64,000 nucleotides of DNA from Gemmatimonadales bacterium (GTDB taxonomy: Bacteria > Gemmatimonadota > Gemmatimonadetes > Gemmatimonadales > GWC2-71-9). Below, in pieces: positions 19,846 to 31,488 of this stretch. Under the pieces are notes generated by a model, which did no database searches, was not told where the DNA came from, and saw only the letters and a program-made list of their open reading frames with translations. The stretch spans positions 248 through 64,247 of the forward strand of contig DATEHG010000011.1 in NCBI GenBank assembly GCA_035279705.1, read 5' to 3'. Positions within the stretch are counted from its first letter, which is position 1. Every line of letters begins with the position of its first letter. The translations under genes were made by a program, and so were the position numbers.

Positions 19846-21414
19846 ATGTCATCGCGCACACTGAACTGGCTCAAGTTCGGCGGGTTGGTTTCCCTGGCCT
19901 TCGTGCTGGGGCTTTTCTTTGCAGGATTGCTCAATCTCCCGTCCCGGTCAGCGGCGCAGGAGCGGGTGGTCCCGGCCTCGGTTGGGAGCGCCAAGGCGCT
20001 GCCGTCCTCCCAGGCGCTCCGCACGCTGGATGATCTGAGCGAGGCTTTCAGCTCGGTGGCCGAGAGCGTGAAGCCGAGCGTGGTCTACATCAAGGCGCAG
20101 CACACCGAGAAGGCCCAGACCCGCAAGGTGCCGCCCGGCATGGAGCAGTTCTTTCCGCATCTCAGGCAGGGGCCTGAAGTCGAGCAGGGCAGCGGCTCAG
20201 GGTTCATCGTCTCCAACGACGGCTACATCCTGACCAACAATCACGTGGTCGAGAATGCGGACCAGGTGACCGTGCGGCTGCTCGACCACCGGGAGTTCCG
20301 GGCCAAGGTCGTCGGCGCCGACCCCAATACCGACGTGGCCGTGCTCAAGATCGACGCGACCGGCCTCACGGCCGCCAATCTCGGCAACAGCGACAATGCG
20401 CACGTGGGCAGCTGGATCCTGGCCATCGGCAACCCGCTGGGCGAGGCGCTGACCTTCACCGTGACCTCGGGTATCGTGAGTGCCCGCGGGCGGCTGCTCA
20501 ACGACCTGCGGCGCTCGAGCGCGCCGATCCAGGACTTCATCCAGACCGACGCCGCGATCAATCCCGGCAATTCAGGCGGCCCGCTGGTCAATGTCCGCGG
20601 CGAGGTGATCGGGATCAACTCGGCCATCGCGAGCGAGAACGGGCTCAACGCCGGCTACGGCTTCGCCATTCCGATCAACCTGGCCCGCCGGGTGATGGAC
20701 CAGCTGATCGCCACCGGAAAGGTGCAGCGGGCGGCCCTGGGCATCGCGATCAACGACGCCTCGGCCACGGATGCCGCCTACGTGGGCCTCAAGGAGATCC
20801 GCGGAGTGAAGGTGGAGGACCTGCCCGATGATTCGCCGGCCAAGGCGGCGGGCATCGAGCCCGGCGACGTGATCATCGCGGTCGACGGGAAACAGATGGA
20901 CTACACCAGCCAGTTGCAGCAGGATATCGGCTTCCGGCGCCCTGGCGAGGTGGTCAAGGTGACCGTGGCCCGGAAGGGCGGCATCACCAAGACGTTCAGC
21001 ATCAAGCTGACCGAGCTCAAGGATGCGCCGCAGGTGGCCGCGAAGGGCAACGACAGCGACAATGACACCGCTCCGGACAAGGGCGCGGCAATCAGCCCGC
21101 TGGGGATCACGGTCCAGCCGCTGACCGCGGACATGGCCGACCAGCTCAACCTCGAGAGCACGATGAAGGGCCTGGTGGTGACGCAGGTCGAGCCCAACGG
21201 CCCGGCCTGGGAAGTGCTGAGCGACGGCACCCGAGGCGCCCCGCCGGACATCATCCTGTCAGTCGAAGGGAAGCCGGTCCGCACCGAGAGCGAGTTGCGT
21301 ACGGCGCTGCACGACGCCGGGAACGGCGCCATCGTGACGCTGCGGGTGTTCACCCCGACCCAGTCAGGCGGGGTGCGGCGGATTGAGCGGATCCAGCTGG
21401 TACCGGCCAAGTAG
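19846..21414 (+). CDS. Periplasmic serine endoprotease HtrA/DegP/DegQ family with two PDZ domains
   Basis: 522 aa. N-terminal anchor/signal and the catalytic triad context (TNNHVV, D...AVLKI, GNSGGPLVN). Two PDZ-like segments. Confidence 0.9.
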   Translation: MSSRTLNWLKFGGLVSLAFVLGLFFAGLLNLPSRSAAQERVVPASVGSAKALPSSQALRTLDDLSEAFSSVAESVKPSVVYIKAQHTEKAQTRKVPPGMEQFFPHLRQGPEVEQGSGSGFIVSNDGYILTNNHVVENADQVTVRLLDHREFRAKVVGADPNTDVAVLKIDATGLTAANLGNSDNAHVGSWILAIGNPLGEALTFTVTSGIVSARGRLLNDLRRSSAPIQDFIQTDAAINPGNSGGPLVNVRGEVIGINSAIASENGLNAGYGFAIPINLARRVMDQLIATGKVQRAALGIAINDASATDAAYVGLKEIRGVKVEDLPDDSPAKAAGIEPGDVIIAVDGKQMDYTSQLQQDIGFRRPGEVVKVTVARKGGITKTFSIKLTELKDAPQVAAKGNDSDNDTAPDKGAAISPLGITVQPLTADMADQLNLESTMKGLVVTQVEPNGPAWEVLSDGTRGAPPDIILSVEGKPVRTESELRTALHDAGNGAIVTLRVFTPTQSGGVRRIERIQLVPAK

Positions 21415-21516: not shown

Positions 21517-22095
21517 ATGCGGTTGATGGACCGCTGGCCGACAACGCTGGTCGTTGCCTCGCTCCTCCTCGGAAGCGGGGTCTGCCGTCTTTCCGCCCAG
21601 GAAGAGTGGGCCGCCGCCGACCGTCAGACCCGCCGGCTCGCACCTGTCTCCTTTACCAAGATCCCCCAGAAGATCACCGAGGAGCTGGAGCGGCGGCGCT
21701 GCCTGATCCCGCAGGCGGGAGACGACACCATCCCTCACAGCGTGGTGAAGGGCTCCTTCTTCCGCGCGGGCCAGACGGACTATGCGGCGCTCTGCTCCCG
21801 GGCGCGGGCCTCGACGATCGTGGTCATCTGGGGAGGCCCCTCCGACTGCCCCGACGAGATGGAGGTCCGCCAGGACAAGAGCTACCTGCTCAAGGGCAGT
21901 GACGGGGTCATCCGTTACCTGCGCCGCATCGAGAGCATCGTGCCCAAGCGGATCAAGGCGCTGTTCGACCGCTACGGCGGCGATCCGCCGCCACCGCTCT
22001 CCCACGACGGGATCAACGACCGGTTTACCGGCAAGGGATCGGTGATCCGGTACTGTTACGACGGGAAGTGGCGGGAGCTGACAGGGGAGCAGTAG
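21517..22095 (+). CDS. Hypothetical secreted protein
   Basis: AGAGGAG lies before the ATG at 21517. Signal-like MRLMDRWPTTLVVASLLLGSGVCRLSAQ. Five Cys residues. No family recognised. Confidence 0.5.
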   Translation: MRLMDRWPTTLVVASLLLGSGVCRLSAQEEWAAADRQTRRLAPVSFTKIPQKITEELERRRCLIPQAGDDTIPHSVVKGSFFRAGQTDYAALCSRARASTIVVIWGGPSDCPDEMEVRQDKSYLLKGSDGVIRYLRRIESIVPKRIKALFDRYGGDPPPPLSHDGINDRFTGKGSVIRYCYDGKWRELTGEQ

Positions 22096-22175
<80 letters not shown>

Positions 22176-22195: not shown

Positions 22196-22277
22196 GCGAG
22201 CGTGGCGGAACTGGCAGACGCGCAGGACTTAGGATCCTGTCCCGAAAGGGGTCCGGGTTCAACTCCCGGCGTTCGCA
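22196..22277 (+). tRNA. tRNA-Leu (anticodon UAG), class II with long variable arm, CCA not encoded
   Basis: Folded by hand. Acceptor GCGAGCG/CGTTCGC, anticodon stem CAGGA/TCCTG with loop CTTAGGA, variable arm CCC-GAAA-GGG, T arm CCGGG-TTCAACT-CCCGG. The D arm (GTGGCGGAACTGGCAGACGCGC) closely resembles E. coli tRNA-Leu. Confidence 0.9.
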
Positions 22278-23669: not shown

Positions 23670-24221
23670 TCAGCGACCGGCGGCTGCCGGGGTTGGAATG
23701 GTGGCCACGAACAGCTGCAGCTCGGTTGATTCGTGGTTATCGAGATCGATGCCGCAGGCCGAATTGGTGAAGTTGGTCGCCGACGCCCCCGCAATGAGGT
23801 CGTAGGTCCCCGCGGCGAGGCCGGTGAAGCTGAAATGCCCCTGGTCGTCGCTGGTAACAATCCCAACGGTGTCGGCCGAAGTTCCGCAACCGCCCGGAGG
23901 GGGATTGCCCGAGCCACCGGAACTGGTGTCCGCCCCGCCATCAAACGCCAGGATGCCCGACCGTGGCCGGAGCACCGTCAGCACCGTCGAATCAGGTGGA
24001 ACCACTCCACCCCCGCTCGAGCCCTTGAGGAGCGTCAACCTGACCCCCGCTACGCTGACGTAGTGGCTGTCCGGCTTCATGTCGAGGGTGACAATCTGGC
24101 CGCTGATGCTGCGCGTCCCCCCTTCCCCGCTGTTCTTCTGCAGCCCCGCCTCGGGCGAGGTGCCGTCCCGGCAGCCGGCCGCCAGCGCCAGGCCGAGCAC
24201 TACTCCCCACTGAAACCGCAT
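23670..24221 (-). CDS. Lipoprotein with carboxypeptidase-regulatory-like (CarboxypepD_reg) beta-sandwich segments
   Basis: The ATG at 24221 gives MRFQWGVVLGLALAAGC (lipobox). Contains ISGQIVTLD... and TSDDQGHFSFTGLAAGTYDL patterns. Confidence 0.55.
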   Translation of the reverse strand: MRFQWGVVLGLALAAGCRDGTSPEAGLQKNSGEGGTRSISGQIVTLDMKPDSHYVSVAGVRLTLLKGSSGGGVVPPDSTVLTVLRPRSGILAFDGGADTSSGGSGNPPPGGCGTSADTVGIVTSDDQGHFSFTGLAAGTYDLIAGASATNFTNSACGIDLDNHESTELQLFVATIPTPAAAGR

Positions 24222-24334
24222 ACCACCTCCGATGAGTCGCTGGTGCACGCGCGGCCCGCGTGGGCCACCCGGTCCCGGCCGGCGTCTCCAGCCGTCGAGT
24301 GGCCACCCCATACGACCCTGCCGGCCCCGCCGGC

Positions 24335-24346
24335 GTCACATGTGAC
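24335..24346. promoter_or_regulatory. Perfect 12-bp palindrome GTCACATGTGAC upstream of the ECF sigma gene
   Basis: Read directly. Lies 30 bp before the ATG at 24376. The flanking CCGGCGTCACA 11-mer is identical to 7809-7819 upstream of the porin gene. Confidence 0.4.
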
Positions 24347-24375
24347 CTTGGCGGATGGAGCGGGGTCTATCGACG

Positions 24376-24915
24376 ATGAGCGAGACCGACCTGGAGCTGG
24401 CGCGGAGGGCCCGGCGGGGCGACCTGACCGCCTTTGGCACACTGATCAGCCGCCACCGGCTCGGACTGGAACGCTATGCCCTGCACCTCCTCGGCCAGCG
24501 GGAAGACGCCGAGGAAGCGCTGCAGGATACCCTGGTGAGGGCCTGGCGGTCGATCGGACAGTGCGCCCATCCCGACCGGTTCAAGGCCTGGCTGGTCCGG
24601 ATCCTGGTCAATCGGTGCCGCACGGCGCTGGTCCGGCGTGGACCCCAGGTGCGGCGGATGGCCGACGAGGAGGCGCTGACCCGCGTCTCGGTGGATCATC
24701 CGGCCCAGGGCGACGGCTGGCCCGACGAAATTCACAGGGCGCTGGAAACGCTTTCGATCGACGCGAGGGAGGCCTTTCTGCTCAAGCACGTCGAAGGGTT
24801 CAGCTACGAGGAGATGGTGGCGCTGACCGGCGCCTCGGTCCCGGCCCTCAAGATGCGGGTGAGCCGAGCCTGCGAGCAGCTCCGGGTGCAGCTGGAGAAT
24901 GGAGCCTATGACTGA
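24376..24915 (+). CDS. ECF (sigma-70 family, RpoE-like) RNA polymerase sigma factor
   Basis: Region 2 (FGTLISRHRLGLERYALHLLG...EDAEEALQDTLVRAW) and region 4 (EAFLLKHVEGFSYEEMVALTGASVPALKMRVSRA) are both recognisable. Confidence 0.85.
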   Translation: MSETDLELARRARRGDLTAFGTLISRHRLGLERYALHLLGQREDAEEALQDTLVRAWRSIGQCAHPDRFKAWLVRILVNRCRTALVRRGPQVRRMADEEALTRVSVDHPAQGDGWPDEIHRALETLSIDAREAFLLKHVEGFSYEEMVALTGASVPALKMRVSRACEQLRVQLENGAYD

Positions 24916-25390
24916 CCAACCCGACGAACCTGCCGGCGATTCGAAGCTTGGCCTGGCCATCGCCGAACTGCGGCGGCCGGTGAAATTGCCCGGTGATCCG
25001 GTCAACCGCACGCTGGAACGCCTGGCGCGGGACTCCCGCCATCGCTGGCAGACGCCCCTGCTGGCCGGTCTCGGAATCGCCGCGACGTTCGCACTGCTGG
25101 TCCTCAGTCATCAGGACCGCCAGCCGCCCAGTCGCGGGCGGGCGGTGCGATTCGCCCTGCAGTCGCAGGCGCAGCAGGTGGCGCTCATCGGCGACTTCAA
25201 TGATTGGGATCCCTCGGCAACGCCACTGACCCGCCAGGGAGGGGAATGGTCGGCCACGGTTGCCCTCAAGCCTGGCCGGTACCGCTACGCCTTCCTGGTG
25301 AATGGAAACCAGCTGGAGGCGGACCCGGCCGGTCCTGCCGCGACCGACGAATTCGGCGGGCCTGCGTCCGCCGTTACGGTGGCCAATTGA
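24899..25390 (+). CDS. Single-pass membrane protein in the anti-sigma position with a C-terminal CBM48/AMPK-beta glycogen-binding-like (E-set) domain
   Basis: Overlaps the sigma gene stop. One TM segment (LLAGLGIAATFALLVL). C-terminal ...VALIGDFNDWDP...GEWSATVALKPGRYRYAFLVNGNQLEADP. No zinc-binding HxxxCxxC motif. Confidence 0.6.
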   Translation: MEPMTDQPDEPAGDSKLGLAIAELRRPVKLPGDPVNRTLERLARDSRHRWQTPLLAGLGIAATFALLVLSHQDRQPPSRGRAVRFALQSQAQQVALIGDFNDWDPSATPLTRQGGEWSATVALKPGRYRYAFLVNGNQLEADPAGPAATDEFGGPASAVTVAN

Positions 25391-25983
25391 GGCAGATACA
25401 CCTGACGGTCCTCGCACTCGGGCTGCTGCTCGCACCGGGAGTGACGATGGCACAGGATCCACGACTGGCCGACCGGCTCCCCGCGGGTACGGCCGCGGCA
25501 GTCCAGCGCGTCGTCGACAGCGCCGGTACCGATTCGATACCGGCCGAGCCGCTGATCCGAAAAGCGCTCGAGGGCCAGAGCAAGGGCGCCGACTCGGCGC
25601 GGATCGTCGCCGCGGTCAGGACACTCGCCGGCAATCTCGCCACGGCGCGCGGTGCGCTCGGACCGACGGCACAGGAATCGGAGCTGGTCGCGGGTGCCGC
25701 GGCATTGCGCGCGGGCGCGCCGGCCGCTAGCCTGGCCGCGCTGCGAGGCCTCCGGAAGAAAGGACCGCTGGCCGTGCCGCTCAGTGTCTACGCCGACCTG
25801 CTGAGCAGCGGGCTGCCGCCCGACCGGGCGTGGGACGAGGTCCGCACGCTGGCCTCCCGCAATGTGCCCGACAGCGAATTCCTGGCGCTCAGGGACCGGG
25901 TCACCGGTCGGGCTGCTCCCGCCAGCACACCGCTGCCGCCGGAGCCGCGCGCCCCACCCGATCCCCTGGATCCCTCGCCATGA
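25387..25983 (+). CDS. Hypothetical secreted alpha-helical protein (third gene of the ECF module)
   Basis: TTG at 25387 overlaps the upstream stop (TTGA). Signal-like LRQIHLTVLALGLLLAPGVTMAQ. Pro-rich tail. Confidence 0.5.
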   Translation: MRQIHLTVLALGLLLAPGVTMAQDPRLADRLPAGTAAAVQRVVDSAGTDSIPAEPLIRKALEGQSKGADSARIVAAVRTLAGNLATARGALGPTAQESELVAGAAALRAGAPAASLAALRGLRKKGPLAVPLSVYADLLSSGLPPDRAWDEVRTLASRNVPDSEFLALRDRVTGRAAPASTPLPPEPRAPPDPLDPSP

Positions 25984-27173
25984 GACTGGCCTCGCGCCTC
26001 TCCGGGGTCCTGCTTGCGGTGCTGACCGGGCCGCTCGCTGCCCAGGTCCAGGGGCATGTGGATCTTGGTATGGGTGGCGCGCCGCTCGCCGGATCGGGAG
26101 TGGCCTCGCTCTGGGCGGTGGCGCCCGCCTTTCGCTGGGAACCCGCCCGCTTTCGCATCGACGGGAACGGCGAATACCGTGACTTCGGGGCGGCCGGGCA
26201 TGCCTGGTCTGGTGCGGCCAGTCTTTCCTGGTTTGTCCCTGCGGGACGCACGCTGCTGTTCGAGGCCAATGGGGCCGGCGAGGGCCGGCAGAATCCGGGA
26301 CTCCCCGGGGCCGTCACGTGGGATGCCGGGGCGCGCCTGCACCTCCGCAGCACCACCACCGGCGCGTGGCTCGGCCTCCGCGGCGGTCGTGATCGACTGG
26401 GCGCCCTGGAGCGCTGGGAGGTGGGTCTCTGGCGAAACCTGGGGCCGCTGTCGCTCCAGCTGCAGGGCCAGCGCACCTCGGGCGGGCTGCTCACCGGCTC
26501 GGGCGCCTCACCGATCGCGGACACGCTGGCCCGGCCCGACACGAACAGTGGGCAGACGCGAGTTCGGATCACCACCGATTTCGGCATGTGGGTGGGATGG
26601 AGCCTCGGCCGCCTGCAGCTCCGGGGCGGCCTCGGTTTGCGGGTGGGCCAGGCCGAACCGGCCAACTCGGGAACACTGGCTGATACGCCGCTCTCGGTTG
26701 CGACCGCGCGCTACAACTGGTGGACTGCCGAGGGCACCTACTGGCTGAGCGACAGGGTGGGGTTCACCGGAACCATCGGCACCCAGCCGCCCAATCCGTC
26801 CCTCTTTGTCTCGGGGGGGCAATTCATGCGCCTCTCGATCCGGGTGGCTCTCGATCGCCGAGGCGAGCGGGCGGCCCTCGAGGCACCGGCCGCGCCGGAG
26901 GGTCTCAAGGTGCGGCGCTCGGGCATCGAGGTCGAGTTTGCGCTGCCGGTGCCGCTCGCGAGCCGCGTAGAATTGATGGGCGACTTCACCGATTGGCAGC
27001 CCGTGGCGCTGGAACGGGGGGCAGACGGCAAGTGGCGCACCCGCCTGCTGGTGAGTCCGGGCGTGCACTATCTCGATGTGCGCTATGACGGCAGCGAGTG
27101 GCGGGCGCCGCCGGGCGCCCGCGTCGTGCGGGACGAGTTCGGCAAGGAGAGCGGGGTCATCCTCATCGAATGA
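25980..27173 (+). CDS. Putative outer-membrane beta-barrel protein with a C-terminal CBM48/AMPK-beta-like domain
   Basis: ATG at 25980 overlaps the upstream stop (ATGA). Signal MRLASRLSGVLLAVLTGPLAAQ, then about 300 aa with an alternating-strand pattern, then ...VELMGDFTDWQPVAL...GKWRTRLLVSPGVHYLDVRYDGSEW. Confidence 0.55.
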   Translation: MRLASRLSGVLLAVLTGPLAAQVQGHVDLGMGGAPLAGSGVASLWAVAPAFRWEPARFRIDGNGEYRDFGAAGHAWSGAASLSWFVPAGRTLLFEANGAGEGRQNPGLPGAVTWDAGARLHLRSTTTGAWLGLRGGRDRLGALERWEVGLWRNLGPLSLQLQGQRTSGGLLTGSGASPIADTLARPDTNSGQTRVRITTDFGMWVGWSLGRLQLRGGLGLRVGQAEPANSGTLADTPLSVATARYNWWTAEGTYWLSDRVGFTGTIGTQPPNPSLFVSGGQFMRLSIRVALDRRGERAALEAPAAPEGLKVRRSGIEVEFALPVPLASRVELMGDFTDWQPVALERGADGKWRTRLLVSPGVHYLDVRYDGSEWRAPPGARVVRDEFGKESGVILIE

Positions 27174-27185
27174 CCCGCGGGCGGG

Positions 27186-27575
27186 CTAGCGCGCCGCCTG
27201 GCCCGTGCGGGCGAGCAGCGCCACGCGGACGGCGTCGACCACCAGCCGGAAATCATTGAGCTTGGAAATGAGGGGCACCCCGCGCGCCTCGATCGGAGCG
27301 TGCACGTCGGGATCGCGGGCGGCCCCGGTGAGAAAAACCACCCGGCGGGCCAGGTGGGGGGCCCGGGCCACGATGGTGTCGTACAGCAGGACTCCGTTCA
27401 TTCCCGGCATCAGTACATCACTCACGACGGCATCCACCGGCTCGGGCGCTTCGAGGAGCCCCAGGGCATCTGCCGACGACCCGGCAGTCACCACGTCATA
27501 GCCGGCCCGGGCCAGGAATCCGCTCAGGGTACGGACCACCGACGGCTCATCGTCCACCACGAGGATTCTTGGCAT
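27186..27575 (-). CDS. Stand-alone response regulator receiver (CheY-like)
   Basis: 129 aa: MPRILVVDDEPSV...VVSDVLMPGMNG...FLTG... Confidence 0.85.
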   Translation of the reverse strand: MPRILVVDDEPSVVRTLSGFLARAGYDVVTAGSSADALGLLEAPEPVDAVVSDVLMPGMNGVLLYDTIVARAPHLARRVVFLTGAARDPDVHAPIEARGVPLISKLNDFRLVVDAVRVALLARTGQAAR

Positions 27576-27715
27576 GGCTCAAGTACCGCCGGGGGCTCCC
27601 GGGGGTCAAGAGGCGCGCCCCGGAAGCCGACTTTACGCTCCGTCCGCGAACCGGGTAAATTCCCGCCCGGTTGCCGGTAGCGTACCGGCGGCACGACTCC
27701 AGCCGGCCCATCAGA

Positions 27716-28969
27716 ATGTCCAGCATCACGATCCAGAAGACCAAGGCGGACGCCGCCTCGCAATCGCTTCAGGTCACCGTCCCCGCCGACCGGGTCAAGG
27801 CGGCGGAGGCCAAGGCCGTGCGTTTCTACAGCCAGCGGGCCAAAGTGCCCGGTTTCCGCCCGGGAAAGACTCCAGAGGCGGTCCTGCGGAAGCGGTTTGG
27901 CGATGCCATCCGCCAGTCCGTCCTGGAGGAGGTCATCCGGGAAAGCTGGGAGGAGGCGCAGAACACCGAAGGGCTCAAGCCGGTAGCCGAACCGCACATC
28001 CACAACCTCAAGTTCGAAGAGGGTGGACCGATCGAGTTCGAATTCCATGTCGAGGTCCGGCCTACCATTGCCCTGGGCAAGACCGGGGGGTTCAAGCTCA
28101 AGCGGAAAGTGGCGGCAGTGACGGCCGAAGCGGTCGAGGAGCGGCTGCGCGACCTGCGTGAGCGGAAGGCGACCTGGCTGCCGGTGGAAGGCGCCAAGCC
28201 CTCGCCGGGGCACCAGGTCCGGGTCGAAGTCGCCCCGCTCGAGGACGGCGTGGCCGGGCCGACGCAGCCGTACTCGATGGTGCTGGGCGAGGGGCGGGCC
28301 ATCCCGGAGCTCGAGGAGCGGATCATGGCGCTCCTCCCCGGCGAAACGGTCGACACCTCCGTCAAGTTCCCCGAGGATTTCTCGGATGAGAGCAAGCGGG
28401 GCCAGACCCGCCAGGTGCGGGTGACGCTGCACGAGGTCAAGCGGCAGGAACTGCCCGAGCTCAACGACGACCTGGCCCGTGAAATCGGCGATTTCGAGAA
28501 TCTCGATGCGCTGCGCGCCGCGCTGCGGCAGGACCTCGAGGAGGACGCGAAGCGCAACGCCGAGGCCGAAGTCCGCCAGGCGCTGGTGGAGGAACTGGTC
28601 AAGGCCAACGGGGTGGAGGCGCCGCCCTCGATGGTCGAGCGGTTCCTGCGGGGATACGCCCGGGGATACCAGATTCCCGACGAGCAGTTCGAAACGTTCG
28701 CCGCCGAATTCCGGCCGCTGGCCGAGGCGCAGGTGCGCCGGGACCTGGCGCTGGACGCGGTGGCGGAGGCCAACAAGCTGTACGCGACCGAGAGCGACAT
28801 GGATGCCCGGATCAAGGAAATGGCCGAGGCGCGCCATGTGTCCGAGGCCCAGCTCTATGCGTCCCTCGAGAAGGCCAACCGGCTCCGGGAACTGGAGCAC
28901 AGCATCACCGAAGAGAAGACTTTCGCCCACCTGCTGCCGCAATCGACCGTCGAGGAGAGCGCGTCATGA
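27716..28969 (+). CDS. tig: Trigger factor
   Basis: ATG at 27716. Ribosome-binding motif region ([10 protein letters not shown]) and conserved tig-clpP-clpX context. Confidence 0.9.
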
Positions 28970-29577
28970 CGCTGTACCCGCCCTATGTAATCGAACGCTC
29001 CAGCCGCGGCGAGCGGTCCTACGACATCTTCTCGCGCCTGCTGATGGACCGGATCGTCTTTCTCGGTTCGCCCATCAACGACGACGTGTCGAACATTATC
29101 ATCGCCCAGCTCTTGTTTCTCGAGGCGGACAACCCGGAGCGGGACATCTACCTGTATCTCAACTCGCCGGGCGGAGTCGTATCGAGCGGGCTCGCCATCT
29201 ACGACACGATGCAGTACCTCAAGGCGCCGGTGCACACCATCTGCATGGGCATGGCGGCATCGATGGGGTCGTTCCTGCTCGCGGCCGGCGCCAAGGGCAA
29301 GCGCAGCGCCCTCCCCCACTCCCGGATCATGATTCACCAGCCGTCCGGCGGCGCCCAGGGCACCGCGGCGGACATCGAGATCCAGGCGCGGGAAATCCTC
29401 TATCTCCGTTCCAAGCTCAACAGTCTCTACGCCGCGCACACCGGGCAGCCGATCGAGACGATCGAGCGGGACATGGACCGGGACCGGTTCATGAGCGCCG
29501 AGGAAGCGAAGGAATACGGACTGATCGACCACATCATCACCAAGCGGTCGGAACTCGTCCCAGCGAAGGTCCCTTGA
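28966..29577 (+). CDS. clpP: ATP-dependent Clp protease proteolytic subunit
   Basis: [27 protein letters not shown] (catalytic Ser), IMIHQPSGG. Confidence 0.97.
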
Positions 29578-29641
29578 CGCTCCCGACGGCCTCCGGCACC
29601 TTTCGAATGACCGCCTCACCCCGGTCCTGACTCGGAGCGTC

Positions 29642-30885
<1,244 letters not shown>

Positions 30886-30889
<4 letters not shown>

Positions 30890-31488
30890 GCCGGCACCTC
30901 CCCGCCCTGCCGGTCGAATTCGTCGGCAGTTTTCCCGATCCCCGCCACCCGCTGGATCCTCCGCTCCCCGAAATCGCCTTTCTCGGACGCTCCAACGTCG
31001 GCAAATCGAGTCTGCTCAACGCCGTGTCCGGCCGTCCCGGGCTCGCCCGCGTCAGCCGCACCCCGGGCCGCACCTCGGCGATGAACGTGTTCCGGTACCC
31101 CACCTTCTACCTCGTGGATCTTCCGGGATACGGCTACGCGCGAGCCAGTCATGAGGCGCGAAGTGGCTACGCGAAGCTCATCAACGATTATCTCGTCGAG
31201 CGCTCCAGGCTCCATGCCGTGGTCTGGCTGCTGGATATCCGCCATGGCCCCTCGGCCGAGGACCTGGAGCAGCGTGAGCTGCTGGCCGAGCGAGGAGTTC
31301 CGGTGCTCGTGGCGCTGACCAAGGCGGACAAACTGACTCGGCGGGAACAGATCAGGCAGGCCGCGGGCATGGCGGTGGCGCTGGACCTTCCGGAAGAGCA
31401 ATTTCATCTCACCAGCAGTTCCCGTGGCACCGGCATCGCGGACCTGGGTGACAGCATCCTTGCCGTACTCGCGGAGACCGCCCCATGA
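30886..31488 (+). CDS. engB: Ribosome biogenesis GTP-binding protein YsxC/EngB
   Basis: GTG at 30886 overlaps the clpX stop (GTGA). G1 [13 protein letters not shown]3 DLPGYGY, G4 TKADK. Confidence 0.85.

Follow-up and report, generated by a model that had tools for sequence, protein, structure and literature searches.

Background

Routes that carry information across the bacterial envelope to sigma factors of the extracytoplasmic function (ECF) type are known mainly from the TonB-dependent transducers and the RseA/DegS pathway, joined recently by the Dma proteins of Bacteroidota. The RpoE-RseA-RseB-RseC system, encoded by an autoregulated four-gene operon, combines an ECF sigma factor with a single-pass anti-sigma factor and a periplasmic accessory protein and reports on the state of the outer membrane, and the Cnr operon encodes an accessory all-helical periplasmic protein. 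A four-gene operon with an overall layout resembling that of RpoE is present in a Gemmatimonadales bacterium (GenBank assembly GCA_035279705.1, contig DATEHG010000011.1, positions 248 to 64,247), where we analysed a stretch of 64,000 nucleotides (hereafter, the window) with a G+C content of about 68%. The operon specifies, in this order, an ECF sigma factor, a membrane protein with a single span that takes the anti-sigma position (g2), a secreted helical protein (g3) and a predicted outer-membrane barrel (g4), and both g2 and g4 carry a C-terminal early set (E-set) domain of the carbohydrate-binding module 48 (CBM48)/AMPK-beta type. We report that this is a real, phylum-wide and previously uncharacterised operon of Gemmatimonadota.

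An initial annotation of the window had read the locus as an envelope-signalling device in which the E-set domains of g2 and g4 would meet in the periplasm. As a mechanism this is plausible in its broad lines; what it probably overlooks is how central g3 is, the helical protein encoded between the two.

Results

Gene order and retention of the module in Gemmatimonadota

The genes of the module and their domains are located in the window as follows.

24376-24915, plus strand: gene for the ECF (group IV) sigma factor, 179 amino acids
24908 (or 24899)-25390, plus strand: g2, single-pass inner-membrane protein in the anti-sigma position, 160 amino acids (163 amino acids from 24899)
25055-25108, plus strand: predicted membrane span of g2, hydrophobic amino acids 53-70
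25145-25381, plus strand: CBM48/AMPK-beta domain of g2 (Pfam), predicted to be periplasmic
25387-25983, plus strand: g3, secreted all-alpha protein, TTG start, 198 amino acids
25980-27173, plus strand: g4, ATG start, 397 amino acids, with a signal peptide, a predicted barrel and a C-terminal E-set domain
25980-26849, plus strand: N-terminal part of g4, with a signal peptide (amino acids 1-21) and a 14-stranded beta-barrel (amino acids 23-290, AlphaFold2 model)
26907-27173, plus strand: C-terminal part of g4, predicted periplasmic CBM48-like E-set domain (amino acids 310-397)

The four genes stand in series at the coordinates given initially, and every junction is an overlap. The sigma gene overlaps g2 by 8 bp (ATG at 24908) or 17 bp (ATG at 24899), the former start being favoured because the homologues begin with MTDQ or MTDE, and the g2/g3 and g3/g4 junctions are TTGA and ATGA overlaps, respectively.

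The closest homologues of g4 were few (16 clusters), and those of g2 and g3 numbered at least 395 and at least 164, respectively; wherever the source name of a homologue identified an organism, it belonged to Gemmatimonadota. A scan with the g3 profile, using one genome per GTDB species, found the gene in at least 139 species, and the 80 loci that were kept were all from this phylum (80/80). The synteny count took in 66 loci, each from a different GTDB species and flanked on either side by at least 1.3 kb of sequence. All four components were present in 66 of the 66, as recognised by a script in 61 cases and by inspection in five; the script had scored the latter five as incomplete, an interpretation that was rejected when the remaining components were found. 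Since the same order recurs in every adequately flanked relative, the arrangement is not due to chance, and the synteny on which the initial annotation depended is indeed present. One locus (L001) shares the flanks of the window, with HtrA upstream and the receiver, tig, clpP and clpX downstream, and four other unrelated neighbourhoods (L002/L005, L006, L088 and L089) have the same order of sigma factor, CBM48 membrane protein, g3 and g4. The module moves and is retained as a whole unit, in at least five different neighbourhoods. After the sigma factor and the g2 domain, g3 is its best-conserved partner.

In the NCBI records, the proteins are named 'isoamylase early set domain-containing protein', 'glycogen-binding domain-containing protein' or 'hypothetical protein'. 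Searches of the literature on CBM48/AMPK1_CBM domains with anti-sigma factors, and on ECF systems of Gemmatimonadota or Gemmatimonas, found none that describes the module, an anti-sigma factor bearing a CBM48 domain or any ECF system of the phylum, and the main text of the ECF re-classification paper mentions neither Gemmatimonadota nor a CBM48/AMPK1_CBM domain.

A new helical protein family and its fusion with the barrel

The g3 protein consists of a signal peptide cleaved after TMA, a helical core (amino acids 25-173) and a proline-rich tail of 25 amino acids. The TTG start is supported because the homologues keep a signal peptide before an invariant glutamine (Q23). Note that gene callers probably miss this start at 25387 (window positions 25387-25449), as judged from the length of a 96%-identical database protein from a near-identical NCBI genome (P0137): its 178 amino acids fit a call from the internal Met21, without the signal peptide.

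The AlphaFold2 model of g3, built with 28 homologues (predicted local distance difference test, pLDDT, 90.5), is a bundle of 9-10 helices followed by the proline-rich tail. No match to g3 was obtained in Pfam or NCBIfam, and a Foldseek search of the PDB gave no structural neighbour, its hits being limited to designed helical repeats (best E = 0.31). Scanned in full with HMMER, the g3 profile collected 1884 representatives at 50% identity. The protein belongs to a new family.

Natural fusions of g3 and g4 were found in at least five relatives (P0284, P0296, P0350, P0404 and a gene of locus L068). They have one N-terminal signal peptide, followed by the g3 helical domain, a Pro/Ala-rich linker of 40-60 residues, the barrel and the E-set domain at the C-terminus. 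Loci L088 and L089 have a three-gene operon, in which the fusion gene comes after those of the sigma factor and g2. The fusions speak for g3 working at, and probably on, the periplasmic side of the barrel, and make it a probable partner of the barrel as well as a candidate go-between. The initial description of g3 as a secreted helical protein with a TTG start is borne out by the conserved signal peptide and the helical model, but the bystander role given to it is not, since it is fused to the barrel in these relatives. Two g3 homologues (P0270 and P0327) have C-terminal tails of 100-130 residues, nearly all Gly, Pro and Ser, compared with 25 amino acids in the window, and these long tails may be spacers of adjustable length.

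We also compared the pairwise distances of six domains in 60 loci by a mirror-tree/partial-correlation analysis, which is exploratory and dominated by the shared phylogeny. Within these limits, the highest partial correlation was that of the g3 core with the g4 barrel (0.40), mildly favouring a coupling between g3 and the barrel. A further candidate fusion, between g2 and g3 in one stop-free frame of locus L058 (4395-5576), was rejected: g3 keeps its own Met and signal peptide there and the last strand of g2 is replaced, and the read-through is probably due to an assembly indel.

A predicted 14-stranded barrel and two paralogous E-set domains

In the AlphaFold2 model of g4 (alignment of 15 homologues), 14 antiparallel strands (amino acids 23-290) are followed by a low-confidence linker and a beta-sandwich (amino acids 310-396). 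The odd connections between the strands (11/5/6/2/19/15/10 amino acids) are long and the even ones (4/3/3/2/2/4 amino acids) short, reproducing the loop/turn pattern of outer-membrane proteins. When the model was compared with the PDB by Foldseek, only outer-membrane barrels were returned (probability 1.00), the 14-stranded OmpG being the best (TM-score 0.55-0.62), together with OmpF, FadL and chitoporin. The barrel had no sequence-family match in Pfam or with the family profile. Judged by the model, g4 is an outer-membrane-type beta-barrel, as had been proposed initially, and because the number of strands is even, its termini, including the C-terminal E-set domain, are predicted to lie on the periplasmic side.

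The C-terminal domain of g2 matched the Pfam families AMPK1_CBM (E = 7.9e-12; 45.7 bits, gathering score 26.8) and CBM_48 (E = 2.2e-9; 38 bits, gathering score 22.4), and the g2 family profile matched the CBM of AMPK beta1 among the PDB sequences (1z0n, E = 1.8e-9), in agreement with the fold first assigned to it. For g4, the corresponding assignment stands through homology and not through Pfam alone. The domain of the window protein (amino acids 328-396) reached 18.7 bits against AMPK1_CBM (E = 2.1e-3), below the threshold of 26.8, but a relative (P0015) passes at 38.4 bits, and the g4 family profile matches the CBM48 domain of plant LSF1 at 8e-4. The g2 and g4 domains share 33% identity over 84 amino acids (BLASTP, E = 3e-12), and the two family hidden Markov models match each other reciprocally (2.7e-13 and 5.3e-13); the two domains are paralogues.

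Glycogen binding by AMPK beta1 is lost upon the substitution W100G or K126Q and reduced by W133L (PMC6274970). We surveyed the residues at the corresponding positions by aligning 83 g2 and 73 g4 sequences to AMPK beta1. The equivalent of Trp100 is invariant in both families (83/83 and 73/73). That of Trp133 is invariant in g4 (73/73) and is Trp in 71 of the 83 g2 sequences; the g2 of the window has Leu at this position, and its closest relatives have Leu or Val. The equivalent of Lys126 is never Lys in either family. A GDFxDW motif, a second Trp and a D(E/D)FG loop are common to the g2 and g4 families; at the aligned positions, AMPK beta1 has Trp100, Trp133 and its Leu146-Gly147 loop, respectively. 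The canonical binding face thus appears to survive as a surface, though in a form other than the known glycogen-binding one, which fits a shared ligand for both domains.

The membrane protein in the anti-sigma position

The g2 protein has no Cys, and hence no zinc-binding anti-sigma (ZAS) motif such as HxxxCxxC, and only one hydrophobic span, as had been noted initially. The 15 residues flanking the span contain on average 3.76 Lys or Arg on the N-terminal side versus 2.25 on the C-terminal side, with the N-terminal side being richer in 60 of 83 sequences. This enrichment argues for an N-in topology, with a cytoplasmic head of about 47-50 amino acids and a periplasmic CBM48 domain. Across the family, the head carries the motif L..RVI..LRRPV.LDP.LD.RVL..L, whose amphipathic segments read as two helices.

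Class I anti-sigma domains consist of four helices and measure 101 +/- 33 amino acids, domains of fewer than 50 amino acids may belong to class II, and in the class II example CnrY, two helices bind the sigma-4 and sigma-2 regions (PMC7406223). The head of g2 is not of class I (including the ZAS type) in view of its length of about 47-50 amino acids, the absence of Cys and the absence of a match to the Pfam anti-sigma families. Its length and its two conserved amphipathic segments fit class II, with no detected sequence similarity to members of that class. The NCBIfam model NF052375 ('anti-sigma factor') gave a sub-threshold match in 10 of 14 g2 members (best E = 1.3e-6). The gene always lies directly after that of the sigma factor, and it overlaps the sigma stop codon in the window and in close relatives. 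Taken together, the gene position, the overlap, the topology, the head motif and the NF052375 matches suggest that g2 is a probable anti-sigma factor of a class II-like type with a two-helix head.

Sigma factor, promoter pair and divergent lipoprotein gene

The sigma factor contains only the sigma-2 and sigma-4 regions (Pfam Sigma70_r2, 2.7e-14; Sigma70_r4_2, 6.3e-13) and scored 63.6 bits against the general ECF model TIGR02937 (cut-off 42.9), consistent with its first assignment. No specific NCBIfam equivalog was reached; the best were SigM, PRK12513 and SigY, at 83-90 bits against cut-offs of 190-206. The following features were recognised upstream.

24342-24368, plus strand: predicted ECF-type operon promoter, TGTGAC (-35), 16-nt spacer, GGGTCT (-10)
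24314-24339, minus strand: second promoter copy, exact match to GTGAC-N16-GGGTC, back to back with the first and facing the lipoprotein gene
24335-24346, no strand: palindrome GTCACATGTGAC, made by the two back-to-back -35 elements and read from the sequence
23670-24221, minus strand: divergent lipoprotein gene, 183 amino acids from MRFQW, with the lipobox LAAGC and a CarboxypepD_reg/transthyretin-like C-terminal domain

The motif matches the layout of ECF promoters (..AC, a spacer of 16-17 nt, ..GTC..), and its GGGTC ends 8 nt before the ATG of the sigma gene. The exact motif TGTSAC-N16-GGGTCT occurs at a fixed offset upstream of the sigma gene in 45 of 75 loci, and a relaxed form (GTSAC-N16-18-GGTC) in 65, with the end of GGTC lying 8 nt from the start codon in 51. 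In view of this 8-nt gap and the usual promoter spacing, the transcript is expected to begin with, or right beside, the first base of the sigma start codon; the operon would then be leaderless or nearly so, and autoregulated. For the minus-strand copy, the predicted start is about 8 nt past GGGTC, near 24305. We placed the sigma start at 24376 and not at the upstream ATG (24355) because the conserved promoter would otherwise fall inside the gene.

In the 64 kb of the window, GTGAC-N16-GGGTC has only these two copies, where 0.36 would be expected, and a minus-strand copy is present upstream of the sigma gene in 36 of the 75 loci. Additional relaxed matches at 1107-1133 and 2769-2795 overlap long open reading frames and were taken as chance occurrences (three matches in total versus 0.77 expected).

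The match of the window's lipoprotein to CarboxypepD_reg (4.6e-5) was below the Pfam threshold. Many relatives have a homologous or a DUF4382/DUF4397 lipoprotein gene in the same divergent slot, and the gene differs by clade, encoding DUF4397, or DUF4382 with CarboxypepD_reg and Big domains (L089, 936-1622; L002, 2738-4177; L005, 3172-4332; all on the minus strand); the lipoprotein nature of the product was read in two sequences, those of the window and L002. The slot is thus conserved and the protein in it is not, and the module has a fifth, variable member. The module extends past 24376-27173, since the bidirectional promoter and the divergent gene belong to it too, and the shared motif makes the lipoprotein gene a probable member of the regulon.

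Discussion

Proposed mechanism and alternative explanations

We propose that the sigma factor would transcribe its own operon as a leaderless mRNA, together with the divergent lipoprotein gene, in a positive feedback, and that g2 would act as its anti-sigma factor, holding it by the short two-helix head in a class II (CnrY-type) manner, while g3 would join g4 in a complex on the side of the outer membrane that faces the periplasm. More speculatively, the paralogous E-set domains may serve, one in place of the other, to dock a ligand that both share; the likeliest candidate is g3 (either the core or the proline-rich tail), and failing that a periplasmic glycan. In the resting state the ligand might sit on the barrel's domain, and a perturbation of the barrel complex or of the outer membrane might shift the occupancy of the g2 domain, upon which g2 could turn susceptible (or resistant) to regulated proteolysis and the sigma factor would be released. 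Because the fusions tether g3 by linkers of 40-60 residues, and some homologues have Gly/Pro tails of 100 residues, g3 could span the periplasmic gap. We favour this specific mechanism, for a self-contained Gemmatimonadota envelope-signalling module built on an ECF sigma factor, only tentatively, judging it as a whole to lie slightly on the doubtful side, with the competition between paralogues as its weakest link. A broader claim, which we consider improbable but worth stating, is that the module represents an undescribed trans-envelope route in which the state of the outer membrane is read as the occupancy of the anti-sigma sensor by g3 (core or proline-rich tail) or by an envelope glycan, and which may be the phylum's main envelope-integrity response.

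Several results weigh against this proposal. The head of g2 matched no Pfam anti-sigma family at E values up to 10 in 14 members, the hits of the g2 family profile in the PDB were confined to the CBM part, with no anti-sigma chain among them, and the head is the fastest-evolving part of the module after the barrel (mean pairwise difference 0.68). The confidence of the g4 model is moderate (pLDDT 76.6, with about 72-93 in the strand blocks; predicted TM-score 0.56). The invariant Trp pair is no worse suited to a glycan than to a protein as its ligand, and in the exploratory partial correlations g3 was not singled out with either E-set domain (0.25 and 0.06).

An explanation that we regard as unlikely on balance, but as the strongest of the alternatives, is that the carbohydrate site still works in both E-set domains and that these bind a polymer of the periplasm, for sensing or tethering. 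If the polymer is an alpha-glucan, imported or periplasmic, g4 might be an oligosaccharide porin with 14 strands, of the OmpG/CymA type, and g2 might sense the substrate as the CBM-bearing RsgI does; if it is instead a glycan of the cell wall, g4 might act as a tether in the manner of OmpA, with g2 watching over the integrity of the wall or envelope. The homology to CBM48 is genuine, the Trp100 equivalent is invariant throughout and that of Trp133 in g4 and in most g2 sequences, OmpG and chitoporin are among the best structural matches of the barrel, and anti-sigma factors with CBM ectodomains exist in Clostridia (RsgI; PMC10328401). However, the lysine whose mutation abolishes glycogen binding in AMPK beta1 (Lys126; PMC6274970) is absent from both families, and the Leu or Val of the window's g2 and its closest relatives at the Trp133 position is the same kind of change as W133L, which weakens binding by AMPK. 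No glycoside hydrolase or glucan-metabolism gene was found beside the module in five independent neighbourhoods, which counts against the sensing of a nutrient alpha-glucan, and a glycan ligand leaves both the strict conservation of g3 and its fusion to the barrel unexplained.

In the model of the initial annotation, the two E-set domains would instead bridge the periplasm by binding one another, and g3 would be an accessory. The domains are paralogous, both are predicted to face the periplasm, and beta-sandwich domains often pair. A typical periplasm is 20 nm wide. The linkers from the g2 span and from the g4 barrel to the respective domains are only about 10 and about 19 amino acids long, so that both would have to be fully stretched for direct contact across an ordinary periplasm, and it is g3, through the long Pro-rich linker of the fusions, that could extend in the direction of the inner membrane. 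The low partial correlation between the two domains (0.14) is weak evidence in the same direction, and we consider direct binding distinctly unlikely. Least probable of all, in our opinion, is that g2 is not an anti-sigma factor and that g2, g3 and g4 are the main envelope targets of a sigma factor controlled elsewhere, forming a barrel complex with an inner-membrane partner. This would account for a head of only about 50 amino acids that evolves fast and bears no Pfam anti-sigma signature, but not for the invariant position of g2 and its overlap with the sigma gene, the cytoplasmic motif kept despite overall divergence, the N-in topology or the recurrent weak match to an anti-sigma model; moreover, two-helix anti-sigma heads of such a size are known (CnrY; PMC7406223).

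Other features around the module

The surroundings of the module in the window include several further features. A gene for an HtrA/DegP-type serine protease with trypsin-like and PDZ domains (19846-21414, plus strand; identified from its own sequence and the annotation of L001) lies about 3 kb upstream. It adjoins the module in L001 too, but not in the other neighbourhoods, so that the link to envelope stress is suggestive but unconserved. On the other side, a stand-alone response-regulator receiver of 129 amino acids (27186-27575, minus strand; Response_reg, 1.1e-17) is encoded convergently with g4, the two stop codons being only 12 bp apart, and is kept beside g4 in L001 only. Directly downstream follows a housekeeping cluster (27671-31488, plus strand) of trigger factor, ClpP, ClpX and an EngB-like GTPase, in the same order in L001. 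A perfect 8-bp tandem repeat of GGGCAGAC (22095-22173; 9.9 copies, 100% matches) is located 22 bp upstream of a tRNA-Leu gene (anticodon TAG; 22196-22277), between an open reading frame of 211 amino acids and an aminotransferase gene.

Comparison with known systems

The E-set domains of the module share with AMPK beta and other CBM48 proteins the fold and the motif GxFNxW ... Y.F.VDG.W..DP. Those proteins are cytoplasmic or linked to enzymes, whereas the domains of the module are predicted to be periplasmic and membrane-tethered, lack the Lys126 equivalent and, in g2, are variable at the Trp133 equivalent. The sequences thus appear to place CBM48/AMPK-beta domains in the periplasm, outside glycogen metabolism. 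An anti-sigma factor with a carbohydrate-binding module as its extracytoplasmic sensor is also found in the RsgI-SigI systems of Clostridia (PMC10328401). These differ from the module in belonging to Gram-positive bacteria, in that SigI is not an ECF sigma factor, in the RsgI-specific autoproteolytic domain, in the use of other CBM families and in having no outer-membrane partner.

With CnrH-CnrY-CnrX, the module would have in common a cytoplasmic anti-sigma head of about 45-50 amino acids, apparently of two helices (PMC7406223). It also resembles Cnr in having a helical periplasmic partner encoded in the operon. There is no detectable sequence similarity between the two systems, CnrX is membrane-anchored and senses metals, and Cnr has neither an outer-membrane barrel nor E-set domains. 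In spite of the layout shared with the RpoE operon, Pfam and NCBIfam revealed no homology of the module proteins to RseA, RseB or RseC. The module encodes an outer-membrane component within the operon, whereas the Rse pathway senses unfolded porin C-termini through DegS.

The Dma proteins of Bacteroidota likewise couple an ECF sigma factor to an outer-membrane barrel via an anti-sigma factor with a short cytoplasmic head. Dma is one polypeptide, comprising the head, a membrane helix, a disordered linker and an 8-stranded barrel, and has been reported to be restricted to Bacteroidota (PMC10927553). The barrel of the module, in contrast, is separate and predicted to be 14-stranded, and the link would be non-covalent, via the E-set domains and/or g3. 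In all loci g2 and the barrel are encoded by separate genes, the sole fusions seen being those of g3 with g4, and the module is thus not of the Dma type.

FecI-FecR-FecA resembles the module in encoding three components together, namely the ECF sigma factor, a regulator that spans the inner membrane once and a barrel of the outer membrane with an extra periplasmic domain, following a logic that leads from the outer membrane to the cytoplasmic sigma factor. No match to STN, Plug, TonB_dep_Rec or FecR was obtained in g2, in g4 or in four relatives, and neither g2 nor g4 has a TonB-box, so that the module is not of the FecIRA type and departs from the TonB-box/STN logic, as the initial annotation had anticipated. 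The FecIRA barrel has 22 strands, compared with the 14 predicted for g4. The periplasmic domain of the module's barrel is C-terminal and paralogous to the sensor domain of the regulator itself, and the module has an extra, obligatory helical protein.

Compared with the TonB-dependent, RseA/DegS and Dma routes, the module would be a fourth solution, using a porin-like barrel of small size, a helical protein whose family is new (about 1,900 clusters at 50% identity) and a domain of the CBM48 type that is duplicated and serves on both membranes, and it is kept across a poorly studied phylum of soil and sediment. With its clear promoter motif and a minimal two-helix anti-sigma candidate, it could also serve as an orthogonal regulatory switch.

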